This document shows, piece after piece, positions 12,423 through 47,222 of a stretch of 64,000 nucleotides of DNA. A program made the translations under genes and the position numbers. This DNA is from Escherichia coli (GTDB lineage Bacteria > Pseudomonadota > Gammaproteobacteria > Enterobacterales > Enterobacteriaceae): assembly GCF_016026235.1 (NCBI RefSeq), contig NZ_CP065613.1. One strand, 5' to 3'. Below the pieces are notes generated by a model. The model saw only the letters and a list, made by a program, of their open reading frames with translations, did no database searches and was not told the origin of the DNA. Position 1 is the first letter of the stretch. The number at the start of each line of letters is the position of its first letter.

Positions 12423-12498
12423 GGGTCGTTAGCTCAGTTGGTAGAGCAGTTGACTTTTAATCAATTGGTCGCAGGTTCGAATCCTGCACGACCCACCA
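12423..12498 (+). tRNA. lysT: tRNA-Lys (anticodon UUU)
   Basis: GGGTCGTTAGCTCAGTTGGTAGAGCAGTTGACTTTTAATCAATTGGTCGCAGGTTCGAATCCTGCACGACCCACCA; cloverleaf and CCA end. Confidence 0.97.
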
Positions 12499-12525
12499 AT
12501 CGCTAAGGTGGAAGCGGTAGTAAAA

Positions 12526-12598
12526 CGTGAAGGATAACGTTGCATCAGCAACGGCCCGAAGGGCGAGACGAAGTCGAGTCATCCTGCACGACCCACCA
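12526..12598 (+). repeat. spacer repeat copy 1 ending in a duplicated tRNA-Lys 3'-end fragment (..gtcatcctgcacgacccacca)
   Basis: about 72 nt, near-identical to copies at 12815-12885 and 13119-13189; last ~19 nt match the T-arm/acceptor 3' end of tRNA-Lys. Confidence 0.8.
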
Positions 12599-12633
12599 CT
12601 AACATAGTTAGTTGTAGTATCCAGCGTAGTATT

Positions 12634-12709
12634 GGGTGATTAGCTCAGCTGGGAGAGCACCTCCCTTACAAGGAGGGGGTCGGCGGTTCGATCCCGTCAT
12701 CACCCACCA
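12634..12709 (+). tRNA. valT: tRNA-Val (anticodon UAC)
   Basis: GGGTGATTAGCTCAGCTGGGAGAGCACCTCCCTTACAAGGAGGGGGTCGGCGGTTCGATCCCGTCATCACCCACCA. Confidence 0.97.
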
Positions 12710-12711
12710 CC

Positions 12712-12787
12712 GGGTCGTTAGCTCAGTTGGTAGAGCAGTTGACTTTTAATCAATTGGTCGCAGGTTCGAATCCTGCACGACCCACCA
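12712..12787 (+). tRNA. lysW: tRNA-Lys (anticodon UUU)
   Basis: identical to lysT copy. Confidence 0.97.
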
Positions 12788-12814
12788 GTTTTAGCATCGA
12801 AGACAGATGTTAAG

Positions 12815-12885
12815 CGTGTAGGATAACGTTGCGTCAGCAACGGCCCGTAGGGCGAGCGAAGCGAGTCATCCTGCACGACCCACCA
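12815..12885 (+). repeat. spacer repeat copy 2 with tRNA-Lys 3'-end fragment
   Basis: cgtgtaggataacgttgcgtcagcaacggcccgtagggcgagcgaagcgagtcatcctgcacgacccacca. Confidence 0.8.
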
Positions 12886-12936
12886 CTAATTACGGTGGGT
12901 TCGGTGGAAGTAGTTTGTAGTATCCAGCGCAGTATC

Positions 12937-13012
12937 GGGTGATTAGCTCAGCTGGGAGAGCACCTCCCTTACAAGGAGGGGGTCGGCGGTTCGATCCCGT
13001 CATCACCCACCA
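12937..13012 (+). tRNA. valZ: tRNA-Val (anticodon UAC)
   Basis: identical to valT copy. Confidence 0.97.
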
Positions 13013-13015
13013 CTC

Positions 13016-13091
13016 GGGTCGTTAGCTCAGTTGGTAGAGCAGTTGACTTTTAATCAATTGGTCGCAGGTTCGAATCCTGCACGACCCACCA
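13016..13091 (+). tRNA. lysY: tRNA-Lys (anticodon UUU)
   Basis: identical to lysT copy. Confidence 0.97.
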
Positions 13092-13118
13092 ATTTTAACA
13101 TCAAACTCAGATGTTAAG

Positions 13119-13189
13119 CGTGAAGGATAACGTTGCGCCAGCAACGGCCCGAAGGGCGAGCGAAGCGAGTCATCCTGCACGACCCACCA
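13119..13189 (+). repeat. spacer repeat copy 3 with tRNA-Lys 3'-end fragment
   Basis: cgtgaaggataacgttgcgccagcaacggcccgaagggcgagcgaagcgagtcatcctgcacgacccacca. Confidence 0.8.
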
Positions 13190-13237
13190 ATCTTAAAGAT
13201 TGGCCCCGAGTAAAAATCTTTCAGGTAACACCCGTAT

Positions 13238-13313
13238 GGGTCGTTAGCTCAGTTGGTAGAGCAGTTGACTTTTAATCAATTGGTCGCAGGTTCGAATCCT
13301 GCACGACCCACCA
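13238..13313 (+). tRNA. lysZ: tRNA-Lys (anticodon UUU)
   Basis: identical to lysT copy. Confidence 0.97.
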
Positions 13314-13346
13314 TCCTGAATGATTAAAGCAGCATAATCCCGCAAG

Positions 13347-13422
13347 GGGTCGTTAGCTCAGTTGGTAGAGCAGTTGACTTTTAATCAATTGGTCGCAGGT
13401 TCGAATCCTGCACGACCCACCA
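13347..13422 (+). tRNA. lysQ: tRNA-Lys (anticodon UUU)
   Basis: identical to lysT copy. Confidence 0.97.
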
Positions 13423-37894: not shown

Positions 37895-38042
37895 CGTGCG
37901 GTGTCTTGATGAATGAAATTTAGAATAACCTAAGATGGGCGGCCAAGATTTTTATGTAGAAAAACCTAAGTTTTTTGATGTAAAAAACACAAGTGTTTGA
38001 AAGTTTGTGCTTTTTATTACAGGGTGTGGAGAAAAAAGGGGA
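37895..38042. promoter_or_regulatory. putative leftward early promoter/operator region (OL-like) downstream of the repressor gene
   Basis: direct repeats tagaataacctaag and tagaaaaacctaag sharing the CCTAAG half-site seen at OR. Confidence 0.4.
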
Positions 38043-38450
38043 TTATTTGTTTGCGCTTCTTTTGCGAGCTTTGAGTAGTTCTTCAAAAAGTTTGTTGAAA
38101 TTTTCAACTCGAGCACGCATCTCTGACAACAGGGCCTTTTGCTCTGACTCAGGCAGTGCGTCGAACAGTTGAAGTAACTCTTTTTGATCTTCTGTCAGAA
38201 TGGCTGGCTGATTATCCGGGATCGGTTCGCCTGGTTGTTTATCTTCATCCCCAAAAAGAAGCCAAGTCGGTGAGCACTGAAGCGCTTGGCTCAGTGCGAA
38301 TAATCTTTTCCCCGCCGGCTGTGTTTCATCTCTTTCCCATTGAGAAATTGTTACGTGAGCCACTTTGACCAGCTTACCTAATGCGGCCTGAGACAGTTTT
38401 AATTTTTTACGCCTATGTAAGAGGCGAGCACCGAAGGTTTCGTTTTTCAT
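38043..38450 (-). CDS. prophage repressor (HTH-XRE; cI/RacR-like)
   Basis: N-terminal HTH LSQAALGKLVKVAHVTISQWERDE; divergent from the cro-like gene. Confidence 0.75.
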   Translation of the reverse strand: MKNETFGARLLHRRKKLKLSQAALGKLVKVAHVTISQWERDETQPAGKRLFALSQALQCSPTWLLFGDEDKQPGEPIPDNQPAILTEDQKELLQLFDALPESEQKALLSEMRARVENFNKLFEELLKARKRSANK

Positions 38451-38526
38451 ATTAGGGAATTCTAATTTTTCTTGACTTAGGTTTCTCTACGATCTAGTTT
38501 CCTTAGGAAAATCTAAGGAGCTCGAT
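38451..38526. promoter_or_regulatory. divergent promoter/operator region (OR-like) between repressor and cro-like gene
   Basis: TTGACT -35-like hexamer and inverted repeat CCTTAG-gaaaat-CTAAGG. Confidence 0.5.
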
Positions 38527-38754
38527 ATGTTGAAAATTGATGCTATAGCGTTTTTTGGCAGCAAAACAAAGCTTGCCAATGCCGCAGGAGTTAGGCTGGC
38601 AAGCATTGCTGCATGGGGGGAACTGGTTCCTGAAGGTCGCGCGATGCGCCTGCAAGAGGCATCTGGCGGGGAACTTCAGTACGACCCCAAAGTTTATGAC
38701 GAATATCGTAAGGCAAAACGACCTGGGAAGGTGATTCATGAAAATCAGGCATGA
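38527..38754 (+). CDS. Cro/YdaS-like small DNA-binding protein
   Basis: 75 aa, MLKIDAIAFFGSKTKLANAAGVRLASIAAWGE...; first rightward gene. Confidence 0.6.
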   Translation: MLKIDAIAFFGSKTKLANAAGVRLASIAAWGELVPEGRAMRLQEASGGELQYDPKVYDEYRKAKRPGKVIHENQA

Positions 38755-39160
38755 GCACATCGAATCAGTGCTGTTAGCCCTGGCAGCCGAAAAAGGGCAG
38801 GCGTGGGTCGCTAACGCAATTACTGAAGAATATCTGCGGCAGGGGGGCGGCGAATTGTCTCTGGTACCAGGCAAGGACTGGAACAATCAGCAGAATATCT
38901 ATCACCGTTGGTTGAAAGGTGAAACGAAAGCGCAAAGGGAAAAAATTCAGAAACTGATCCCTGTGGTTCTGGCAATTCTTCCGCGTGAGCTGCGTCACCG
39001 ACTCTGTATCTTCGATACCCTGGAACGCCGTGCATTACTGGCGGCGCAGGAAGCGTTGAGTACGGCAATTGATGCGCATGATGATGCTGTCCAGGCCGTT
39101 TACCGGAAAGCACATTTCAGCGGTGGTGGGTCGCCCGGCGATTCTGTCGTAGTGCATTGA
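38738..39160 (+). CDS. YdaT-like protein (CII-position)
   Basis: 140 aa, MKIRHEHIESVLLALAAEKGQAWVANAITEEYLRQGGGELSLVPGKDWNNQQNIYHRWLKGETKAQREKIQKLIP... resembles Rac YdaT. Confidence 0.6.
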   Translation: MKIRHEHIESVLLALAAEKGQAWVANAITEEYLRQGGGELSLVPGKDWNNQQNIYHRWLKGETKAQREKIQKLIPVVLAILPRELRHRLCIFDTLERRALLAAQEALSTAIDAHDDAVQAVYRKAHFSGGGSPGDSVVVH

Positions 39161-39237
39161 TTGAAATTAATCGTGCCGGATTGTTTTGTTCGGTATCAGT
39201 TAAATGTAACGCTGCGAGCGTTACAAGGTGAAAACAA

Positions 39238-40026
39238 ATGGCTTCAAACTGGATAAAGCTCGAGGTTATTACGCCGGATAAGCCGGAAATATTCAGGCTT
39301 GCTGAGATTCTGAATATTGATCCAGATGCCGCATTAGGGAAGGTTATTCGCTTCTGGGCATGGGCGGATCAACAAATGATAGACGGTAATGCAGATTGTA
39401 ACGCTCGCGGCGTTACAAAAAGTGCAATAGATCGCATCACTTTTATGTCTGGTTTTGCTGATGCGTTAATTCAGGTTGGATGGCTGGTCGAAAATGACGG
39501 TGGGCTTTCTCTACCTAACTTTGAACGTCATAACGGAAAAAGCTCTAAAAAACGGGCGGTTACAAACGAGCGAGTAACAAAAATACGCGAACTGAAACGA
39601 AAAGGTAACGCTGCCAGCGTTACACAAACGGATCAAAAAGCGTTACCAGAGGAAGAGGAAGAGGAAGATCTAAATACTGATCTCCCCCTAAATCCCCCTC
39701 GCCAAAAACGAGCGTCTAAAAAATTCGAGCCGGAGGCTATTGAGCTGCCCGATTGGTTGCCGGAAACACTCTGGCATGAGTGGGTCCGGTTCAGACAGGC
39801 ATTGCGAAAACCGATTCGAACGGAGCAGGGCGCTAACGGGGCGATACGGGAACTGGAAAAATTCCGTCAGCAGGGTTTTACACCTGAGCAGGTGATTCGA
39901 CACAGCATCGCCAATGAATACCAGGGCCTGTTCGCGCCGAAAGGTGTTCGGCCTGAGACGTTGCTCCGACAGGTTAACACCGTCTCGTTGCCGGACAGTG
40001 CGATCCCGCCAGGCTTCAGGGGGTAA
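39238..40026 (+). CDS. replication initiation/replisome organizer protein (YdaU/O-like)
   Basis: 262 aa with acidic linker; followed by DnaC-like gene. Confidence 0.55.
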   Translation: MASNWIKLEVITPDKPEIFRLAEILNIDPDAALGKVIRFWAWADQQMIDGNADCNARGVTKSAIDRITFMSGFADALIQVGWLVENDGGLSLPNFERHNGKSSKKRAVTNERVTKIRELKRKGNAASVTQTDQKALPEEEEEEDLNTDLPLNPPRQKRASKKFEPEAIELPDWLPETLWHEWVRFRQALRKPIRTEQGANGAIRELEKFRQQGFTPEQVIRHSIANEYQGLFAPKGVRPETLLRQVNTVSLPDSAIPPGFRG

Positions 40027-40032
40027 CGGACC

Positions 40033-40779
40033 ATGAAAAATATTGCGACAGGCGGCGTTCTGGAACGCATCCGCCGACTGACCCCGCCACATGTAACCGC
40101 CCCATTCAGAACGGTAGCGGAGTGGCGCGAGTGGCAACTTGCTGAAGGCCAGAAACGTAGCGAGGAGATCAACCGCCTGAATCGCCAGTTGCGGGTGGAA
40201 AAAATTCTGAATCGCTCAGGCATCCAGCCGTTGCACCGTAAATGCTCGTTTGCGAATTACCAGGTGCAGAACGACGGCCAGCGATACGCGTTAAGCCAGG
40301 CGAAATCCATCGCCGATGAACTGATGACCGGGTGTACAAATTTTGCGTTCAGCGGAAAACCTGGTACCGGGAAGAATCACTTAGCGGCAGCTATCGGGAA
40401 TCGCCTGCTGAAAGACGGTCAGACAGTGATTGTGGTTACCGTGGCTGATGTTATGAGCGCCCTGCACGCCAGCTATGACGACGGGCAGTCAGGCGAAAAA
40501 TTTTTGCGGGAGCTGTGCGAAGTGGATCTGCTGGTTCTTGATGAAATTGGCATTCAGCGCGAGACGAAAAACGAGCAGGTGGTGCTGCACCAGATTGTTG
40601 ATCGCCGGACAGCGTCGATGCGCAGCGTGGGGATGCTGACAAACCTGAACTATGAGGTGATGAAAACATTGCTCGGCGAGCGGGTGATGGATCGCATGGT
40701 CATGAACGGCGGGCGCTGGGTGAATTTTAACTGGGAGAGCTGGCGTCCGAATGTTAGCCATTCGAGGGTTGTTAAGTAG
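40033..40779 (+). CDS. DnaC-like helicase loader ATPase (YdaV-like)
   Basis: Walker A GKPGTGKNHLAAAIG, Walker B LLVLDEIG. Confidence 0.75.
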   Translation: MKNIATGGVLERIRRLTPPHVTAPFRTVAEWREWQLAEGQKRSEEINRLNRQLRVEKILNRSGIQPLHRKCSFANYQVQNDGQRYALSQAKSIADELMTGCTNFAFSGKPGTGKNHLAAAIGNRLLKDGQTVIVVTVADVMSALHASYDDGQSGEKFLRELCEVDLLVLDEIGIQRETKNEQVVLHQIVDRRTASMRSVGMLTNLNYEVMKTLLGERVMDRMVMNGGRWVNFNWESWRPNVSHSRVVK

Positions 40780-40793
40780 TTTCAGGAGGATTT

Positions 40794-41216
40794 ATGGCGA
40801 AACCTTTTACTCCCGAACAGCGGGAAGAACTGAAGACGCGAATTGTGGAACTCGTGCATCAGGACGGTCGGGTCACGATTCGGCAGTTGTCAGATGAAAC
40901 AGGTATCAGTCGTGCGTCTGTCGGTCGCTTATGCATGGAACTGGTCGCAAGTGGTGATGTATATAATTCTGGCTACGGCTTATTCCCGTCTGAACAGGCT
41001 CGCAAGGACTGGCAAAGCGCCCGCAAAAAACTCTCGAGAGTAAAGGTGAGGAAACCGGTTGTTGTTGATCCGGACCTTATCTGGTCATTACCTGACGGAG
41101 AAATACGCCGCTACGACAGGCGCCTGAATATAATCTGTCGCGAGTGCCGGAAGAGCGAAGCTATGCAGCGTGTACTGGCTTTCTATCAGGGTAATTTTCA
41201 GGAGGCGATACTGTGA
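40794..41216 (+). CDS. hypothetical phage protein (140 aa)
   Basis: ORF with winged-helix-like N-terminus (IRQLSDETGISRASVGRL). Confidence 0.4.
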   Translation: MAKPFTPEQREELKTRIVELVHQDGRVTIRQLSDETGISRASVGRLCMELVASGDVYNSGYGLFPSEQARKDWQSARKKLSRVKVRKPVVVDPDLIWSLPDGEIRRYDRRLNIICRECRKSEAMQRVLAFYQGNFQEAIL

Positions 41217-41273
41217 ATGAAATTAGCTATCAGGCTTCAATTACCGCTGGCATTCGCATCAAAGGAGAGGAGC

Positions 41274-41630
41274 ATGGAAATAAAACCAGAAGATGAGTTA
41301 AGCAATATCGTTTTATTTCCGATAAAAGAGGATGACCCTCGTAATCAGGTTAATTTTCTTTATGAGCCATCGGAAAGACCATATTGCCATCACGCCTCTG
41401 TACGGGTTGACGAAAAAGAGCGTCAGGTCCGCTGTAAAATCTGCGGTGCGGTTGTGGAGCCGTTTGACTGGATGCTCTCTGTGGCAAAAAGAGAAACCAG
41501 ACTGGCAGATGATGTAAGGCTATTGCGCCAGGAGGAACAGGAAAGGCGGAGAAATATAGAAAAGCTGATACAGATTGAGCGTAACGCGAAAGCGCGGATA
41601 CGCAGGGCGACAAAATCCAGAACTGAATAA
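41274..41630 (+). CDS. hypothetical zinc-ribbon phage protein
   Basis: GGAGAGGAG RBS before MEIKPEDEL; CHH...CKICG motif. Confidence 0.45.
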   Translation: MEIKPEDELSNIVLFPIKEDDPRNQVNFLYEPSERPYCHHASVRVDEKERQVRCKICGAVVEPFDWMLSVAKRETRLADDVRLLRQEEQERRRNIEKLIQIERNAKARIRRATKSRTE

Positions 41631-41777
41631 TTAAATTTAGCACTGTTAAAAATTTAATCCTTAACCGGAGGGATTTCTGCACCCTCAAATCATCAGGAGA
41701 CCGCCCGAAAGGGCGGGGAGCAGTCACACATCTGTTTCCGATAGCCCCGTTCTAATGCTACACTCTTTGATATTTTT

Positions 41778-42464
41778 ATGACCCCAATAAACATATTTAT
41801 GACAGTTGCTGATTTCAAACGGCCCAAATTGGAGCTCCCAAACGGGGCAAACAAACTACTACTGCACTCTTGCTGTGCTCCATGTTCCGGTGAGGTGATG
41901 GAGGCGCTTCAGGCCTCGGGAATCGACTACACCATCTTTTTCTACAACCCGAACATTCATCCTCAGAAAGAGTATTTAATTCGTAAGGATGAGAATATTC
42001 GCTTTGCTGAACAACACGGCGTGCCGTTTATTGATGCTGATTACGACACAGACAACTGGTTTGAACGAGCCAAAGGAATGGAATGGGAGCCCGAACGAGG
42101 GATCCGTTGCACCATGTGTTTTGACATGCGTTTTGAGCGGACAGCGCTGTACGCCGCTGAAAATGGTTTCAGTGTGATCAGCAGTTCACTGGGCATTTCA
42201 CGCTGGAAAAATATGCAGCAGGTTAACGACTGTGGGCGGCGAGCCGTCGCGCATTATCCGGGCATGGTGTACTGGGATTATAACTGGCGCAAGCAGGGCG
42301 GCTCGTCCCGTATGATTGAAATCAGCAAGCGCGAAAAATTCTATCAGCAGGAATATTGTGGCTGTGTGTATTCTCTGCGCGATACCAATCTACACCGCAA
42401 ATCTCAGGGACGCCCTCTTATCAAAATTGGTCAACTCCACTACGGTAAAGAAGAGAAGGAGTGA
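41778..42464 (+). CDS. queH: QueH-like (DUF208) epoxyqueuosine reductase family protein
   Basis: motifs [40 protein letters not shown] as I recall for QueH; 228 aa; located in the nin-like region. Confidence 0.6.
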
Positions 42465-42691
42465 TTTTATGGGGCACCTTTCTGATTGATTTCATATTGG
42501 CGAGGTAAGTAGAATGACTGCGGGTGCTTGAGGCTATCTGCTTCAGGCATGAACACCAAAAGGCAGATAGAGAAAAGCCCCAGTTAACATTACGCGTCCG
42601 GCAAGACGCTTAACATTAATCTGAGGCCAATTTCATGCTTTGCACATGTAGGTTAGCCTCTTACATGCCGAAAGGCAAGGAGAAGCAGGCT

Positions 42692-42847
42692 ATGAAGCAG
42701 CAAAAGGCGATGTTAATCGCCCTGATCGTCATCTGTTTAACCGTCATAGTGACGGCACTGGTAACGAGGAAAGACCTCTGTGAGGTACGAATCCGAACCG
42801 GCCAGACGGAGGTCGCTGTCTTCGTAGACTACGAATCCAGGAAGTAA
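42692..42847 (+). CDS. hok: Hok/Gef-family type I toxin (51 aa)
   Basis: MKQQKAMLIALIVICLTVIVTALVTRKDLCEVRIRTGQTEVAVFVDYESRK; in-frame upstream extension from 42635 resembles a mok-like leader ORF. Confidence 0.85.
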   Translation: MKQQKAMLIALIVICLTVIVTALVTRKDLCEVRIRTGQTEVAVFVDYESRK

Positions 42848-42919
42848 GAGTGACCGGGCGGGGAGCTGATCCCATCCCCGCCCACCTCTGATGTGTCAGG
42901 CATCCTCAACGCACCCGCA

Positions 42920-42975
42920 CTTAACCCGCCCATCGCTGTGATCTCTCAGCGTTTCGGCGGGTTTTTTGTTGTTTA
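42920..42975 (+). terminator. GC-rich hairpin plus T-tract downstream of hok
   Basis: cccgcc...ggcgggttttttgttg; long loop, so boundaries are approximate. Confidence 0.45.
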
Positions 42976-43096
42976 TTTCCGGTGAATTTGATTCGCGCAC
43001 CTTCGCAGATAGAATCGACTCACTTAAGTAGCGCGCAGGGAGAAGAGGGATGGACCCCGAACAGGGGAGAGCTATTTATCTGGAAGGATTCTGAAG

Positions 43097-43384
43097 ATGA
43101 AAATCGAAGAATTGCGTGAAATTTTTAGTGAAAATGGCCTCTATGCTGTGCGCGTTGAGAATGGAGCGATTGTCAGCCATTGCCGCATTAGATGTTTGCA
43201 ATCTCAACAAAGGAAGAGCGGTGCTGTGTTATTTTATTTTTGTAATGGACTTCTGACGGACGGTTTTATTTTGCGTGAGGACGAATTTGTCACATCATTA
43301 CGGGTTTTGAAAGAGATTGGTTTTAAGGCTGGTTTTCTGCTTTTGCTGAAGAATAAACTCATCTACAATCTTGAGCAGGATTGA
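43097..43384 (+). CDS. hypothetical phage protein (95 aa)
   Basis: ORF with RBS, nin-like region. Confidence 0.35.
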   Translation: MKIEELREIFSENGLYAVRVENGAIVSHCRIRCLQSQQRKSGAVLFYFCNGLLTDGFILREDEFVTSLRVLKEIGFKAGFLLLLKNKLIYNLEQD

Positions 43385-43422
43385 ACTCCTGCTGTGTAAC
43401 ACCGTGCCACCGGAGAAAGCCG

Positions 43423-44022
43423 ATGGCACATATACAACTGGTCAAACAAACCTCTTCCGGATTACTTCTCCCGGCGACGCCGGAGAGTTGCGATTTTCTG
43501 CATCAAATCAAAATAGGTGAGTGGATACACGCAGACTTTAAGCGTGTGCGTAACTACGCATTCCACAAGCGTTTTTTCAAACTCCTGCAACTGGGTTTCG
43601 ATTACTGGACTCCGGTCGGTGGGGCGATCACGCCTCGCGAACGAAAACTGGTGTCCGGTTTCGTTGATTACCTGTGTGAATCAGTAGGCCGGGAACATAC
43701 GCCAGCTCTGAGCGAAGCCGCAGAGCAATATCTGAATACAGTTGCGACACGCAGAACCCGTGATACGGCATTGCTAAAGTCGTTTGAGGCTTTCCGCGAG
43801 TGGGTAGCCATTCAGGCCGGATTTTACACCGAGCATTTTTATCCGGACGGTAGCCGTGGGTGTCGGGCGAAATCTATCGCGTTTGCGAATATGGACGAAA
43901 CCGAGTTTCAGCAGGTTTATAAATCTGTACTGAATGTGCTGTGGAACTGGATTCTGTTCCGTAAATTTTCCTCTCCGGAACAAGTCGAAAATGTGGCCGC
44001 GCAGCTGCTGGAGTTTGCGTAA
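43423..44022 (+). CDS. hypothetical nin-region protein (199 aa)
   Basis: GGAGAAAG RBS before MAHIQLVKQT. Confidence 0.45.
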   Translation: MAHIQLVKQTSSGLLLPATPESCDFLHQIKIGEWIHADFKRVRNYAFHKRFFKLLQLGFDYWTPVGGAITPRERKLVSGFVDYLCESVGREHTPALSEAAEQYLNTVATRRTRDTALLKSFEAFREWVAIQAGFYTEHFYPDGSRGCRAKSIAFANMDETEFQQVYKSVLNVLWNWILFRKFSSPEQVENVAAQLLEFA

Positions 44023-44312
44023 TGGTGGATTTACTTAAAGCGGCGCGGGGGCAGATGTGCACCGTCAGAATTCCTGGCTACTGCAATCACGATCCGGAAA
44101 CGTCTGTGCTGGCGCATTACCGACTGGCGGGAACGTGCGGAACAGCGATAAAGCCACACGATATGCAGGCAGCGATTGCCTGTAGCTCGTGCCACGATTT
44201 AATCGACGGGCGGGTAAAAACCAGCGATTACACCAAAGAAGAATTACGCCTGATGCATGCAGAAGGTGTTTTTCGCACACAAGAAATCTGGAGAAAGGAG
44301 GGATATTTATGA
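44022..44312 (+). CDS. YbcO-like (DUF1364) putative nuclease
   Basis: MVDLLKAARGQMCTVRIPGYCNHDPETSVLAHYRLAGTCGTAIKPHDMQAAIACSSCHDLIDGR resembles DLP12 YbcO. Confidence 0.6.
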   Translation: MVDLLKAARGQMCTVRIPGYCNHDPETSVLAHYRLAGTCGTAIKPHDMQAAIACSSCHDLIDGRVKTSDYTKEELRLMHAEGVFRTQEIWRKEGYL

Positions 44313-44863
44313 TTTACCCAACGAATACAGGAAAAAGCGGAGAACACCTTCGTCTCACCACGCTGGAAAGTGTCTGGATTCAGGGAAAACTACGTATGTG
44401 GGGGCGCTGGTCGTATATTGGTGGCGGTAAGACGGGGAATATGTTTAACCTGATGTTGACCTCTAAAAAGCTGACAAAAACGGCAATTAACGAGGCGCTC
44501 CGGAGGATGAAAAAAGCAGGTCTGAACAAGTCTGAACTTGAGGCTTTTTTGCGGGATATGATTAACGGTAAGCAAAAGAGCTGGCTGGCGCATTGTACTG
44601 ATGCAGAGGCGTTATGTATTGATCGGGTCATAAGTGAGGTGCTGGCAGAGCATCCAGGATTGATTAGCGTCCTTCGGCAACGGTATGAGGGGCGGGGGAT
44701 GACCAAACGCAAAATGGCTGAACTGCTGAATGATGCACACCCGAAATGGAGTTTAAGAACCTGTGAAAGACGCATTGAGCATTGGCTAAAGGTGGCAGAA
44801 TTTATTTTGTACAAACCAATGGTTATGGCTTTTGGTATAGAGAAAAAAGTTATTGCTTTTTGA
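44309..44863 (+). CDS. late-gene antiterminator Q-like protein
   Basis: AGGAGG RBS before MIYPTNTGKSGEHL; located immediately upstream of a terminator, tRNAs and lysis genes. Confidence 0.5.
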   Translation: MIYPTNTGKSGEHLRLTTLESVWIQGKLRMWGRWSYIGGGKTGNMFNLMLTSKKLTKTAINEALRRMKKAGLNKSELEAFLRDMINGKQKSWLAHCTDAEALCIDRVISEVLAEHPGLISVLRQRYEGRGMTKRKMAELLNDAHPKWSLRTCERRIEHWLKVAEFILYKPMVMAFGIEKKVIAF

Positions 44864-44937
44864 CGTAAAAACTGCTTCAATTCTTGTACGCTTCGCAAAG
44901 CTGTACCGCGAGGCGAATAGCAGACATGGACATTTGA

Positions 44938-44967
44938 AAGAGCCCGCTTTATGCGGGTTTTTTTATA
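44938..44967 (+). terminator. rho-independent terminator downstream of Q (tR'-like)
   Basis: agcccgc-ttta-tgcgggt followed by 7 T. Confidence 0.7.
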
Positions 44968-45052
44968 CCTGAAAAACGGCACAGGACGTTAAACGTGCTG
45001 GTGGTCAGATGAGTTTGCAGATGTGATGACATATGGTTATTATTCTGCCTCC

Positions 45053-45129
45053 GGCCCTTTAGCTCAGTTGGTCAGAGCGAGCGACTCATAATCGCCAGGT
45101 CGCTGGTTCAAGTCCAGCAAGGGCCACCA
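45053..45129 (+). tRNA. tRNA-Ile2 (anticodon CAU, lysidine-type; close relative of E. coli ileX)
   Basis: GGCCCTTTAGCTCAGTTGGTCAGAGCGAGCGACTCATAATCGCCAGGTCGCTGGTTCAAGTCCAGCAAGGGCCACCA; cannot fully exclude Met by sequence alone. Confidence 0.8.
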
Positions 45130-45130
45130 A

Positions 45131-45207
45131 CCACCACTAGCTCATCCGGATAGAGCATCAACCTTCTAAGTTGACGGTGCGAGGTTCGAGTCCTCGGTGG
45201 TGGGCCA
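45131..45207 (+). tRNA. tRNA-Arg (anticodon UCU)
   Basis: CCACCACTAGCTCATCCGGATAGAGCATCAACCTTCTAAGTTGACGGTGCGAGGTTCGAGTCCTCGGTGGTGGGCCA; cloverleaf folds, C1-G72 pair. Confidence 0.75.
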
Positions 45208-45209
45208 GC

Positions 45210-45285
<76 letters not shown>

Positions 45286-45288
45286 TAT

Positions 45289-45363
<75 letters not shown>

Positions 45364-45810
45364 GCGAGATTTGAGACGAAGGTTGTTATTTGCACTGACA
45401 CAATATTGTGTGGGAATGTCTGACTCCTTACCATCTCCTGTTCTGTGATGTTGTTTTGTTGCAGTTCCAGTGCTCTTTTTTCAGCACCAGAATGGTGCAT
45501 TGTCGGTCAGGTTACGTAGTGAACCTCTGGCAGGGGACTGATAATGCATCATTCTGGTGTTGTAAATATCTCTTCGGACAACTTACAAAATATTCTAAGC
45601 AAACCCCGGGAACACACTCTTAACTGCCTTGGCTGGCGGTTTTTTGTACAGTGCTCGGTATGTGTGAGCTGGAAATCAGATTTTGCATGGACTGGAATCA
45701 TGCTGTTATTTAGGGGCGAAGAACTGGCTTTTTCTTCCGCCTTCTCACCAGTAATGATTAGAAAAATAATGAAATGCCCCCTCCGGGGAGGAGGACCGTA
45801 GAAAAAAGGA

Positions 45811-45867
45811 CCCGCCAGCAAAAACATTGGGGATGAACAGCTTTCGCTACTCAGATTGCTGGCGGGT
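45811..45867. other. 11-bp perfect inverted repeat with about 35-nt loop in noncoding DNA
   Basis: cccgccagcaa ... ttgctggcggg. Confidence 0.6.
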
Positions 45868-45974
45868 AAAGTTCCTCATGAATTAAGAATGCTACGCGAT
45901 CTTTTTTAATGGAAATGAAAATTATTGTCAATTAGACGTGCGTGTTTTTTCATACAATATTGGTAAAGGTGATT

Positions 45975-46008
45975 CAGGCCATCAGAGTTTTGCTGATGGC
46001 CTTTTTTC
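45975..46008 (+). terminator. rho-independent terminator just upstream of the holin gene
   Basis: ggccatcag-agttttg-ctgatggcc followed by tttttt. Confidence 0.7.
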
Positions 46009-46042
46009 TTTCCGATAGCACAGGTCTGTCGGGGGGCGGGAT

Positions 46043-46258
46043 ATGTATCAGATGGAAAAAATATCAACAGGCATTGCCTACGGCACCTCCGCCGGCAGTG
46101 CCGGCTACTGGTTTTTGCAGTGGTTGGATCAGGTCAGTCCATCACAGTGGGCTGCGATTGGTGTGCTGGGAAGTCTGCTTCTGGGGCTTCTGACTTATCT
46201 GACGAATCTGTATTTCAAAATAAGAGAAGATAAGCGTAAGGCTGCGAGAGGTGAATAA
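46043..46258 (+). CDS. S: phage-21-type pinholin S with dual start
   Basis: [71 protein letters not shown]; Met1 and Met4 give antiholin/holin starts; two TM segments. Confidence 0.85.
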
Positions 46259-46755
46259 TGTCGCCATCATTACGCAAGGCTGTTGCAGTTGCTATTGGTG
46301 GCGGGGCTGTTGCTATAGCATCTGTGTTAATCACTGGCCCAGGTGGTAACGATGGTCTGGAAGGTGTCAGCTACATACCATACAAAGATATCATTGGTGT
46401 ATGGACTGTATGTCACGGACACACCGGAAAAGACATCATGCCTGGTAAAACGTATACCGAAGCAGAATGCAAAGCTCTCCTGAATAAAGACCTTGCCACT
46501 GTCGCCAGACAAATTAACCCGTACATCAAAGTCGATATACCGGAAACAACGCGCGGCGCTCTTTACTCGTTCGTTTACAACGTGGGCGCTGGCAATTTCA
46601 GAACATCGACGCTTCTTCGCAAAATAAACCAGGGCGATATCAAAGGCGCATGTGACCAGCTACGTCGCTGGACATATGCTGGCGGTAAGCAATGGAAAGG
46701 GCTGATGACCCGTCGTGAGATTGAGCGTGAAGTCTGTTTGTGGGGGCAGCAATGA
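46258..46755 (+). CDS. R: SAR endolysin (lysozyme with N-terminal signal-arrest-release segment)
   Basis: weakly hydrophobic Gly/Ala-rich N-terminal segment [20 protein letters not shown] then lysozyme-like domain; ATG overlaps holin stop. Confidence 0.8.
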
Positions 46756-47222
46756 GCAGAGTCACCGCGATTATCTCCGCTCTGGTTATCTGCATCATCG
46801 TCTGCCTGTCATGGGCTGTTAATCATTACCGTGATAACGCCATTACCTACAAAGAGCAGCGCGACAAAAACGCAAGAGAACTGAAGCTGGCGAACGCAAC
46901 CATTACTGACATGCAGCAGCGCCAGCGTGCTGCTGATGCACTCGATGCTAAATACACGAAGGAGTTAGCCAATGCGAAAGCTGAAAATGATGCTCTTCGG
47001 CGCAAGCTTGATAATGGTGGTTGGGTGCTCGTCAAAGGAAAATGCCCTGTGCCATCCTCAGCCGAAACCTCCAGCGCCTCCGGCATGGGCAATGATGCCA
47101 CCGTCGAACTCTCTCCAGTTGCTGGACGAAACGTTCTCGGTATCCGGGACGGAATCATCAGCGACCAGACAGCATTGAGAATGCTTCAGGAGTACATCAG
47201 GATCCAATGCCTTGGGGGGTAG
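46752..47222 (+). CDS. Rz: i-spanin Rz
   Basis: [24 protein letters not shown]-terminal TM, coiled-coil periplasmic domain; follows endolysin. Confidence 0.8.
46972..47178 (+). CDS. Rz1: o-spanin Rz1, embedded in +1 frame within Rz
   Basis: [21 protein letters not shown] lipobox, proline-rich mature part ([18 protein letters not shown]). Confidence 0.8.

Follow-up and report, generated by a model that had tools for sequence, protein, structure and literature searches.

We describe a gene for a QueH-type epoxyqueuosine reductase that is carried by a lambdoid prophage of Escherichia coli, and we propose, with a probability of roughly three in four, that it is a moron for the B12-independent completion of the tRNA modification queuosine (Q). 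The activity of the encoded enzyme is predicted, and the benefit of bypassing vitamin B12 is one that we infer. QueH is predicted to be an iron-sulfur, cobalamin-independent enzyme that would reduce epoxyqueuosine (oQ) to Q, its target being position 34 of the host tRNAs for Asn, Asp, His and Tyr. According to this proposal a lambdoid (Rac/Qin-like) phage lineage would have acquired queH from the chromosome of an enterobacterium in the form of a small cassette, in which the open reading frame (ORF) is preceded by its native leader with a probable extended -10 promoter, and would have placed it after the replication/Ren-like module. E. coli does not synthesize vitamin B12 de novo, and because QueG, the reductase of the host, needs this vitamin, a phage copy of QueH would free Q completion from the B12 supply. 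The lysogen may profit in the manner of a moron-type lysogenic conversion, phage translation may profit, or both; expression in the lysogen from the putative promoter of the cassette appears possible.

The host pathway of E. coli yields oQ-tRNA by means of Tgt and QueA (PMC9508795), and E. coli QueG is a cobalamin/[4Fe-4S] enzyme (PMC5175355, PMC4646009). As cited in PMC5175355 and PMC4646009, Frey et al. 1988 described that E. coli and Salmonella reduce oQ in a cobamide-dependent manner. A survey of 7-deazaguanine genes in viruses from 2019 contained no QueA, QueG or QueH homologues (PMC6884629), and a literature search for QueH, DUF208 or epoxyqueuosine reductase in phage, prophage or E. coli found no study of a prophage QueH. 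The original prediction had called a QueH on a prophage unexpected. Judged by the virus survey and the literature search it is; judged by the databases it is less so, the gene being already named in RefSeq and present in about 1000 complete E. coli genomes. The enzyme family is known and the gene is correctly named in RefSeq, while its phage context appears to be unstudied. The advance therefore concerns context and physiology and not a new mechanism.

The window, i.e. the whole stretch of 64,000 nucleotides that was analysed, contains a maximal reading frame of 228 aa at positions 41778..42464 on the plus strand. This ORF had been assigned to the QueH/DUF208 family on the basis of its motifs, and all five of them, including YCGCVYS, are found in the translation. 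The profile search proposed as a check matched Pfam QueH (PF02677) over its full length (E=2.3e-65, model positions 1-174 of 175 on residues 27-201), and phmmer matched QueH of Thermotoga maritima (PDB 7lc5) at E=5e-22. With these two values a chance match is excluded. An AlphaFold2 model, for which an alignment of 87 sequences served as input, reached a pLDDT of 94.5 and a pTM of 0.89. Its best Foldseek matches in the PDB are five entries of T. maritima QueH, with target-normalised TM-scores of 0.90-0.92 and an rmsd of 1.2-2.0 Å. The entries 7lc5, 7lc7 and 9deu gave TM-scores of 0.91-0.92, with 7lc5 at 0.92 (target-normalised) and 1.2 Å. The next folds, TtuA, TilS and other PP-loop-like enzymes, matched far more weakly, TtuA and similar proteins at E values of about 1e-4 or weaker. 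The window protein shares the fold of the crystallised enzyme, an adenine-nucleotide-alpha-hydrolase-like Rossmann core.

Conserved residues agree with this assignment. In the numbering of the 228-aa frame, C32/C33, C111/C114 and C194/C196 align with the six cysteines of T. maritima QueH (CC, CxxC and CxC). The codons of the CCAPC motif, comprising Cys32, Cys33 and Cys36, lie at 41871..41885 (+), and those of the predicted metal ligands Cys111/Cys114 and Cys194/Cys196 at 42108-42119 (+) and 42357-42365 (+), respectively. The six cysteines are kept in approximately 83-98% of the sampled relatives, with the lowest conservation at C194 (65/76) and C196 (64/71). We take them to bind a [4Fe-4S] cluster and an adjacent iron, the ligand roles being those reportedly assigned by Li et al. 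2021. The near-invariant residues of the family are all present, namely N57, N59, I60, P62, E65, Y66, R69, W94, E106, R110, C111, C114 and K144. In sum, the full-length domain, the fold, the six cysteines and the conserved N/E/Y/R/W/K residues are common to T. maritima QueH and the window protein, although their identity is only about 30%. Unlike the T. maritima enzyme, the window protein is phage-encoded and carries an N-terminal extension of about 20 residues and a basic C-terminal extension of about 25 residues, both of which are common to the gammaproteobacterial subfamily. A further difference, which counts somewhat against the proposed activity, concerns Cys36, which aligns with Asp13 of T. 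maritima QueH, the sole QueH crystallised so far; Asp13 is the site mutated (D13N) in PDB 9dco. Since Cys is the majority residue at this position (71 of 77 sampled relatives) and Asp the exception, Cys36 is typical of the family and not deviant. We conclude that the ORF encodes a full-length member of the QueH family, which confirms the assignment.

QueH domains with 54-60% identity were also seen near the C-terminus of five longer predicted proteins of 471-1398 aa, for which both domain fusion and faulty gene calling are conceivable.

The translation start is probably not the first ATG of the frame. ATG 41778 is changed to ATT in one divergent prophage copy (strain 200177), whereas ATG 41799 and its flanking sequence are kept in all phage copies as well as in homologues on the chromosomes of other genera. 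For this reason we prefer a start at 41799, which is also the start chosen by PGAP and which probably gives a protein of 221 aa rather than 228 aa; queH is accordingly placed at 41799..42464 (+). RefSeq names the prophage gene "epoxyqueuosine reductase QueH". For the exact 221-aa protein RefSeq has a MULTISPECIES entry, which bears the name of Shigella sonnei and occurs on at least 1000 contigs. No NCBIfam model matched the window protein, so the PGAP name must derive from another rule. Among the PHROGs it matched phrog_3217, described as "unknown function", the profile of which begins at residue 41 and leaves out the CCAPC motif.

The gene had been described as prophage cargo in a nin-like region, and both descriptions are accurate. 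It lies inside a lambdoid (Rac/Qin-like) prophage integrated beside ybhA/modC, and it is found in an isolated phage, HannyBb, and on IMG/VR viral contigs. Upstream, the order of genes is repressor/Cro, YdaT, an O-like protein, the DnaC-like YdaV, a Ren-like DUF977 protein and a hypothetical gene, followed by queH. Downstream follow sok/hokD, a hypothetical gene, a NinB-like DUF1367 gene, an HNH (DUF1364) gene, a Q-like antiterminator (DUF1133) and four tRNA genes, and beyond these holin, lysozyme, Rz, terminase and further late genes. The sok/hokD type I toxin-antitoxin locus is located directly downstream of queH at 42522-42847 (Rfam sok, 117 bits); the HokD ORF ends at 42847, and a GC hairpin resembling a terminator comes after it. 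In prophages other than that of the window, the slot 3' of queH is taken by a DUF1971 gene or, as in O157:H7 (Z1832), by an NgoMIV-type restriction-modification system. A perfect GC-rich hairpin without a T-run, CCGCCCgaaaGGGCGG, precedes the cassette at 41701-41716 in intergenic sequence; it occurs only in the upstream context of the window type (17 of 80 IMG/VR loci). Compared to its 99.8%-identical counterpart in FDAARGOS_943, the prophage of the window (30289-64000) seems better preserved: in FDAARGOS_943 the regions of the integrase, recE, the terminase and Q-tRNA are broken by IS1, IS2 and IS600, and unbroken ORFs of integrase size (375 aa) and terminase size (503 aa) are found in the window.

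The setting within a phage raises the question of the substrate. Phages are known to place 7-deazaguanines in their DNA (PMC6884629), and QueH touches the queuosine/7-deazaguanine pathway just as the DpdA/preQ0 DNA-modification modules of phages do. The DpdA/preQ0 modules act on DNA, however, whereas window QueH is predicted to act on host tRNA in the last Q-specific step. QueH might have been recruited to a 7-deazaguanine derivative of phage DNA or to some other target, be it an epoxide or a redox target, perhaps to serve defence or counter-defence, and the residue that replaces T. maritima Asp13 could be read in this sense. We regard such a recruitment as highly improbable. The PGAP annotation of the 99.8%-identical FDAARGOS_943 prophage contains no DpdA/Tgt-like transglycosylase, no FolE, QueC, QueD or QueE and no other queuosine or 7-deazaguanine gene, and a PHROGs scan of the neighbours of window queH revealed no DpdA or preQ0-synthesis genes. 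A role in DNA modification was rejected, the partner genes (DpdA, preQ0 synthesis) being absent from the prophage. Moreover, chromosomal QueH proteins from a wide range of bacteria share 78-90% identity with the window protein, which has the family-majority Cys at the Asp13 site, and PADLOC gave no match that would make it part of a defence system. Completion of Q on host tRNA is the most likely role of the phage QueH.

The original prediction combined queH and the phage tRNA genes into a package for the tuning of translation, supplying tRNAs together with their modification. The proximity is real: 2.6 kb downstream of queH, at 45053-45363, there are four tRNA genes, and their anticodons are CAU (Ile2/Met), UCU (Arg), UGU (Thr) and UCC (Gly). 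Substrates of queuosine modification are only tRNAs with a GUN anticodon (Asn, Asp, His, Tyr), and none was present in any of 28 related prophage loci, the tRNA sets of which vary. Among these 28 loci with sufficient flanking sequence, a phage tRNA cluster was located within 6 kb of queH in 16 and no cluster in 11. The ratio NAU/(NAU+NAC) is 0.55 in the prophage genes and 0.55 in the host genes of the window; a phage codon bias requiring Q was considered and gave no signal. The package has to be given up, as it includes no tRNA that is a substrate for Q, as the linkage is variable and as the codon bias is missing. The tRNA cluster lies where lambdoid phages usually have theirs, downstream of the gene for the Q-like antiterminator, and the phage tRNAs are a module independent of queH. 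The tRNA sets of related prophages differ in composition (Met-Lys-Thr-Gly, Met-Arg-Arg or Thr-Gly). The first tRNA was called tRNA-Met(CAU) by ARAGORN and tRNA-Ile by PGAP for the identical gene of FDAARGOS_943, the latter call implying an ileX-like tRNA with a lysidine-modified CAU. A host tRNA cluster of the lysT-valT type (Lys-Val-Lys-Val-Lys-Lys-Lys) at 12423-13422, upstream of gal/mod, belongs to the ordinary core genome.

The borders of the queH insertion are well defined. In comparative alignment a conserved leader at 41730..41798 (+) forms the upstream boundary of the cassette: homology to the window starts 60-70 nt upstream of ATG 41799 in 63 of 80 IMG/VR loci, and the same boundary is found in the O157, ST131 and HannyBb prophages despite different upstream genes. 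At the other end, DNA homology stops exactly at the queH stop codon in two prophage types. In the prophages of O157:H7, ST131, strain 200177 and HannyBb alike, queH follows the DUF977/replication module in one and the same slot, whereas the cargo downstream of queH and the late-regulatory modules vary among them. Hence queH shows what is expected of a moron cassette, namely discrete insertion with defined boundaries in a variable slot and absence from some related phages. The nin-region morons and auxiliary metabolic genes of lambdoid phages share this layout, being discrete cargo whose variable slot separates the replication module from that of the Q antiterminator.

The leader contains a candidate promoter. 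The sequence TGCTACACT at 41756..41764 (+), a putative extended -10 element (TGn + TAnnnT), is invariant in 80 of 80 IMG/VR copies and is paired with a weak -35 near 41735-41741 (+). At equal distance from the ATG the element recurs as TGCTACACT, TGCTAGAAT or TGCTAAAAT upstream of the queH genes of Escherichia albertii (in a prophage remnant) and of Citrobacter-like and Erwinia-like bacteria. Upstream of the chromosomal queH of Enterobacter, ATGCTAC is kept and the final T of the hexamer is absent. The candidate was found by comparative alignment, not by generic promoter scan; a generic scan around queH yielded no canonical sigma-70 promoter and no terminator beyond chance, and it did not call the TGCTACACT motif. 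No Shine-Dalgarno sequence precedes either ATG (41778, 41799). A search of Rfam at the gathering threshold over 38000-47000 returned only sok and tRNAs and no upstream riboswitch or other RNA element such as preQ1. By its sequence the leader fits a putative extended -10 promoter (TGnTAnnnT), and this suggests that the phage captured queH together with its native promoter.

In another reading QueH would serve the phage only, being transcribed solely with the early rightward (pR) operon after induction, completing Q on host tRNAs during lytic growth in favour of the synthesis of phage proteins, and remaining silent in the lysogen and of no consequence to the host. Indeed, queH shares its strand with the replication genes and follows them immediately, upstream of the Q antiterminator; no terminator intervenes before queH, and the gene is present in the free phage HannyBb. 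We nevertheless consider an exclusive service to the phage unlikely. The lytic cycle is short relative to tRNA turnover, and the phage genes show no NAU/NAC codon bias as compared to the host. Furthermore, the extended -10-like motif of the cassette is also found upstream of chromosomal queH in other genera, which suggests autonomous transcription, and E. albertii keeps queH in a decayed prophage remnant in many genomes, which argues for a benefit to the host.

As to its origin, prophage queH has close relatives on bacterial chromosomes. With a GC content of 48.6% it is similar to its phage surroundings (48.8%). Chromosomal queH genes in non-phage settings, with 78-90% identity, are found in Enterobacter, Citrobacter-like and Erwinia-like bacteria, Providencia, Photorhabdus, Pseudomonas and on an Acinetobacter-like contig. 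The chromosomal proteins of Enterobacter, Citrobacter koseri, Klebsiella, Erwinia, Providencia, Photorhabdus and the Acinetobacter-like contig have a length of 214-223 aa. Chromosomal QueH of Enterobacterales and other gammaproteobacteria has the same extensions as the window copy and a similar upstream extended -10-like motif. The difference lies in the neighbourhood: chromosomal copies reside in ordinary surroundings such as purL-glrK or near tmcA, whereas those of E. coli and Shigella reside in lambdoid prophages. In Enterobacter, queH is located between a LysR/acetyltransferase pair and csbD, in Erwinia-like bacteria between purL and glrK; a locus of the Citrobacter/Klebsiella type carries it as well, and in Providencia it adjoins tmcA. 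Providencia queH and tmcA are on opposite strands with a small DUF441 gene between them (loci L003-L005, 3265-6645); tmcA encodes the tRNA-Met cytidine acetyltransferase, another enzyme modifying the anticodon wobble position. Two records labelled 'Acinetobacter phage MD-2021a' (CAKLQH020000001.1, CAKLQF020000001.1; 328-378 kb, about 35% GC, with soxR, cynX, tadA and ycaQ) have the appearance of bacterial contigs filed under phage by mistake, and the annotation of their QueH reads 'putative prophage protein'.

In E. albertii, queH was seen within an apparent decayed prophage remnant together with a Phage_lysis fragment, an NleG effector and OmpT (loci L099/L100, 2397-6825). The E. albertii protein is present in more than 180 assemblies and is widespread in the species, which suggests that a phage-derived queH was fixed there.

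In E. coli, the gene is common and is nearly always chromosomal and single-copy. It was found in 994 of 5426 complete genomes (18%), and 984 of the 994 copies cover at least 80% of the query. Carriers include O157:H7, O25:H4 (ST131), APEC O1 and EAEC 042. The isolated temperate phage HannyBb has queH with 96.5% identity, annotated as hypothetical, and at least 162 IMG/VR viral contigs carry the gene; 79 of 80 IMG/VR copies encode an intact protein of 221 aa. The host enzyme was correctly identified at the outset as the unrelated, cobalamin-dependent QueG (PMC5175355). With 5425 of 5426 complete E. coli genomes harbouring queG, it is a core gene, and as a consequence QueH always coexists with QueG in E. 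coli and is an addition, not a replacement. QueG performs the reaction that is predicted for window QueH (oQ34-tRNA to Q34-tRNA) but differs from it in fold and cofactor.

The universal presence of queG, as opposed to queH in only 18% of genomes, would also be in line with a neutral hitch-hiker, i.e. a gene that is perhaps functional, redundant with QueG and devoid of selective value in E. coli. Selection speaks a different language and makes this quite improbable. Among prophage copies of queH the dN/dS ratio is 0.025-0.054, with dS up to 0.45, and the gene is under strong purifying selection while residing in phages. A decaying passenger gene is excluded by these values. At a ratio of some 0.03-0.05 over such distances, with about 99% of the queH copies intact and with a slot that is conserved across prophages of differing neighbour cargo, neutrality has little to commend it.

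Because all hosts come with a queG of their own and corrinoids are usually available in the gut, the selective benefit of a B12 bypass is uncertain. Little is known of phenotypes that would set oQ-tRNA apart from Q-tRNA. Redundancy between the two enzymes would have a direct precedent: Acinetobacter baylyi is reported to possess both QueG and QueH and to lose Q only when both are deleted, and duf208 genes reportedly complement an E. coli ΔqueG mutant (both attributed to Zallot et al. 2017).

If the enzyme is active, the view of a QueG-only, B12-dependent Q pathway in E. coli fails for about 18% of the sequenced strains, including major pathotypes. The tRNA queuosine status of carrier strains under B12 limitation would then depend on a prophage, and the reading of Q/oQ measurements, of queG mutant phenotypes and of predictions of corrinoid dependence would be affected. 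A tRNA-modification enzyme would join the auxiliary genes of phages, correcting the view of viruses as lacking Q-specific maturation genes. More tentatively, and with somewhat less than even confidence, we suggest that temperate lambdoid phages perform an 'epitranscriptomic lysogenic conversion', in which QueH expressed from its own promoter would provide B12-independent Q in about one fifth of E. coli and Shigella strains. If true, O157:H7, ST131, APEC O1, EAEC 042 and S. sonnei would be among the strains concerned, QueH would be the first demonstrated case of a virus-borne enzyme for Q-specific tRNA maturation, and under corrinoid scarcity carrier strains would hold Q where strains of the K-12 type hold epoxy-Q.
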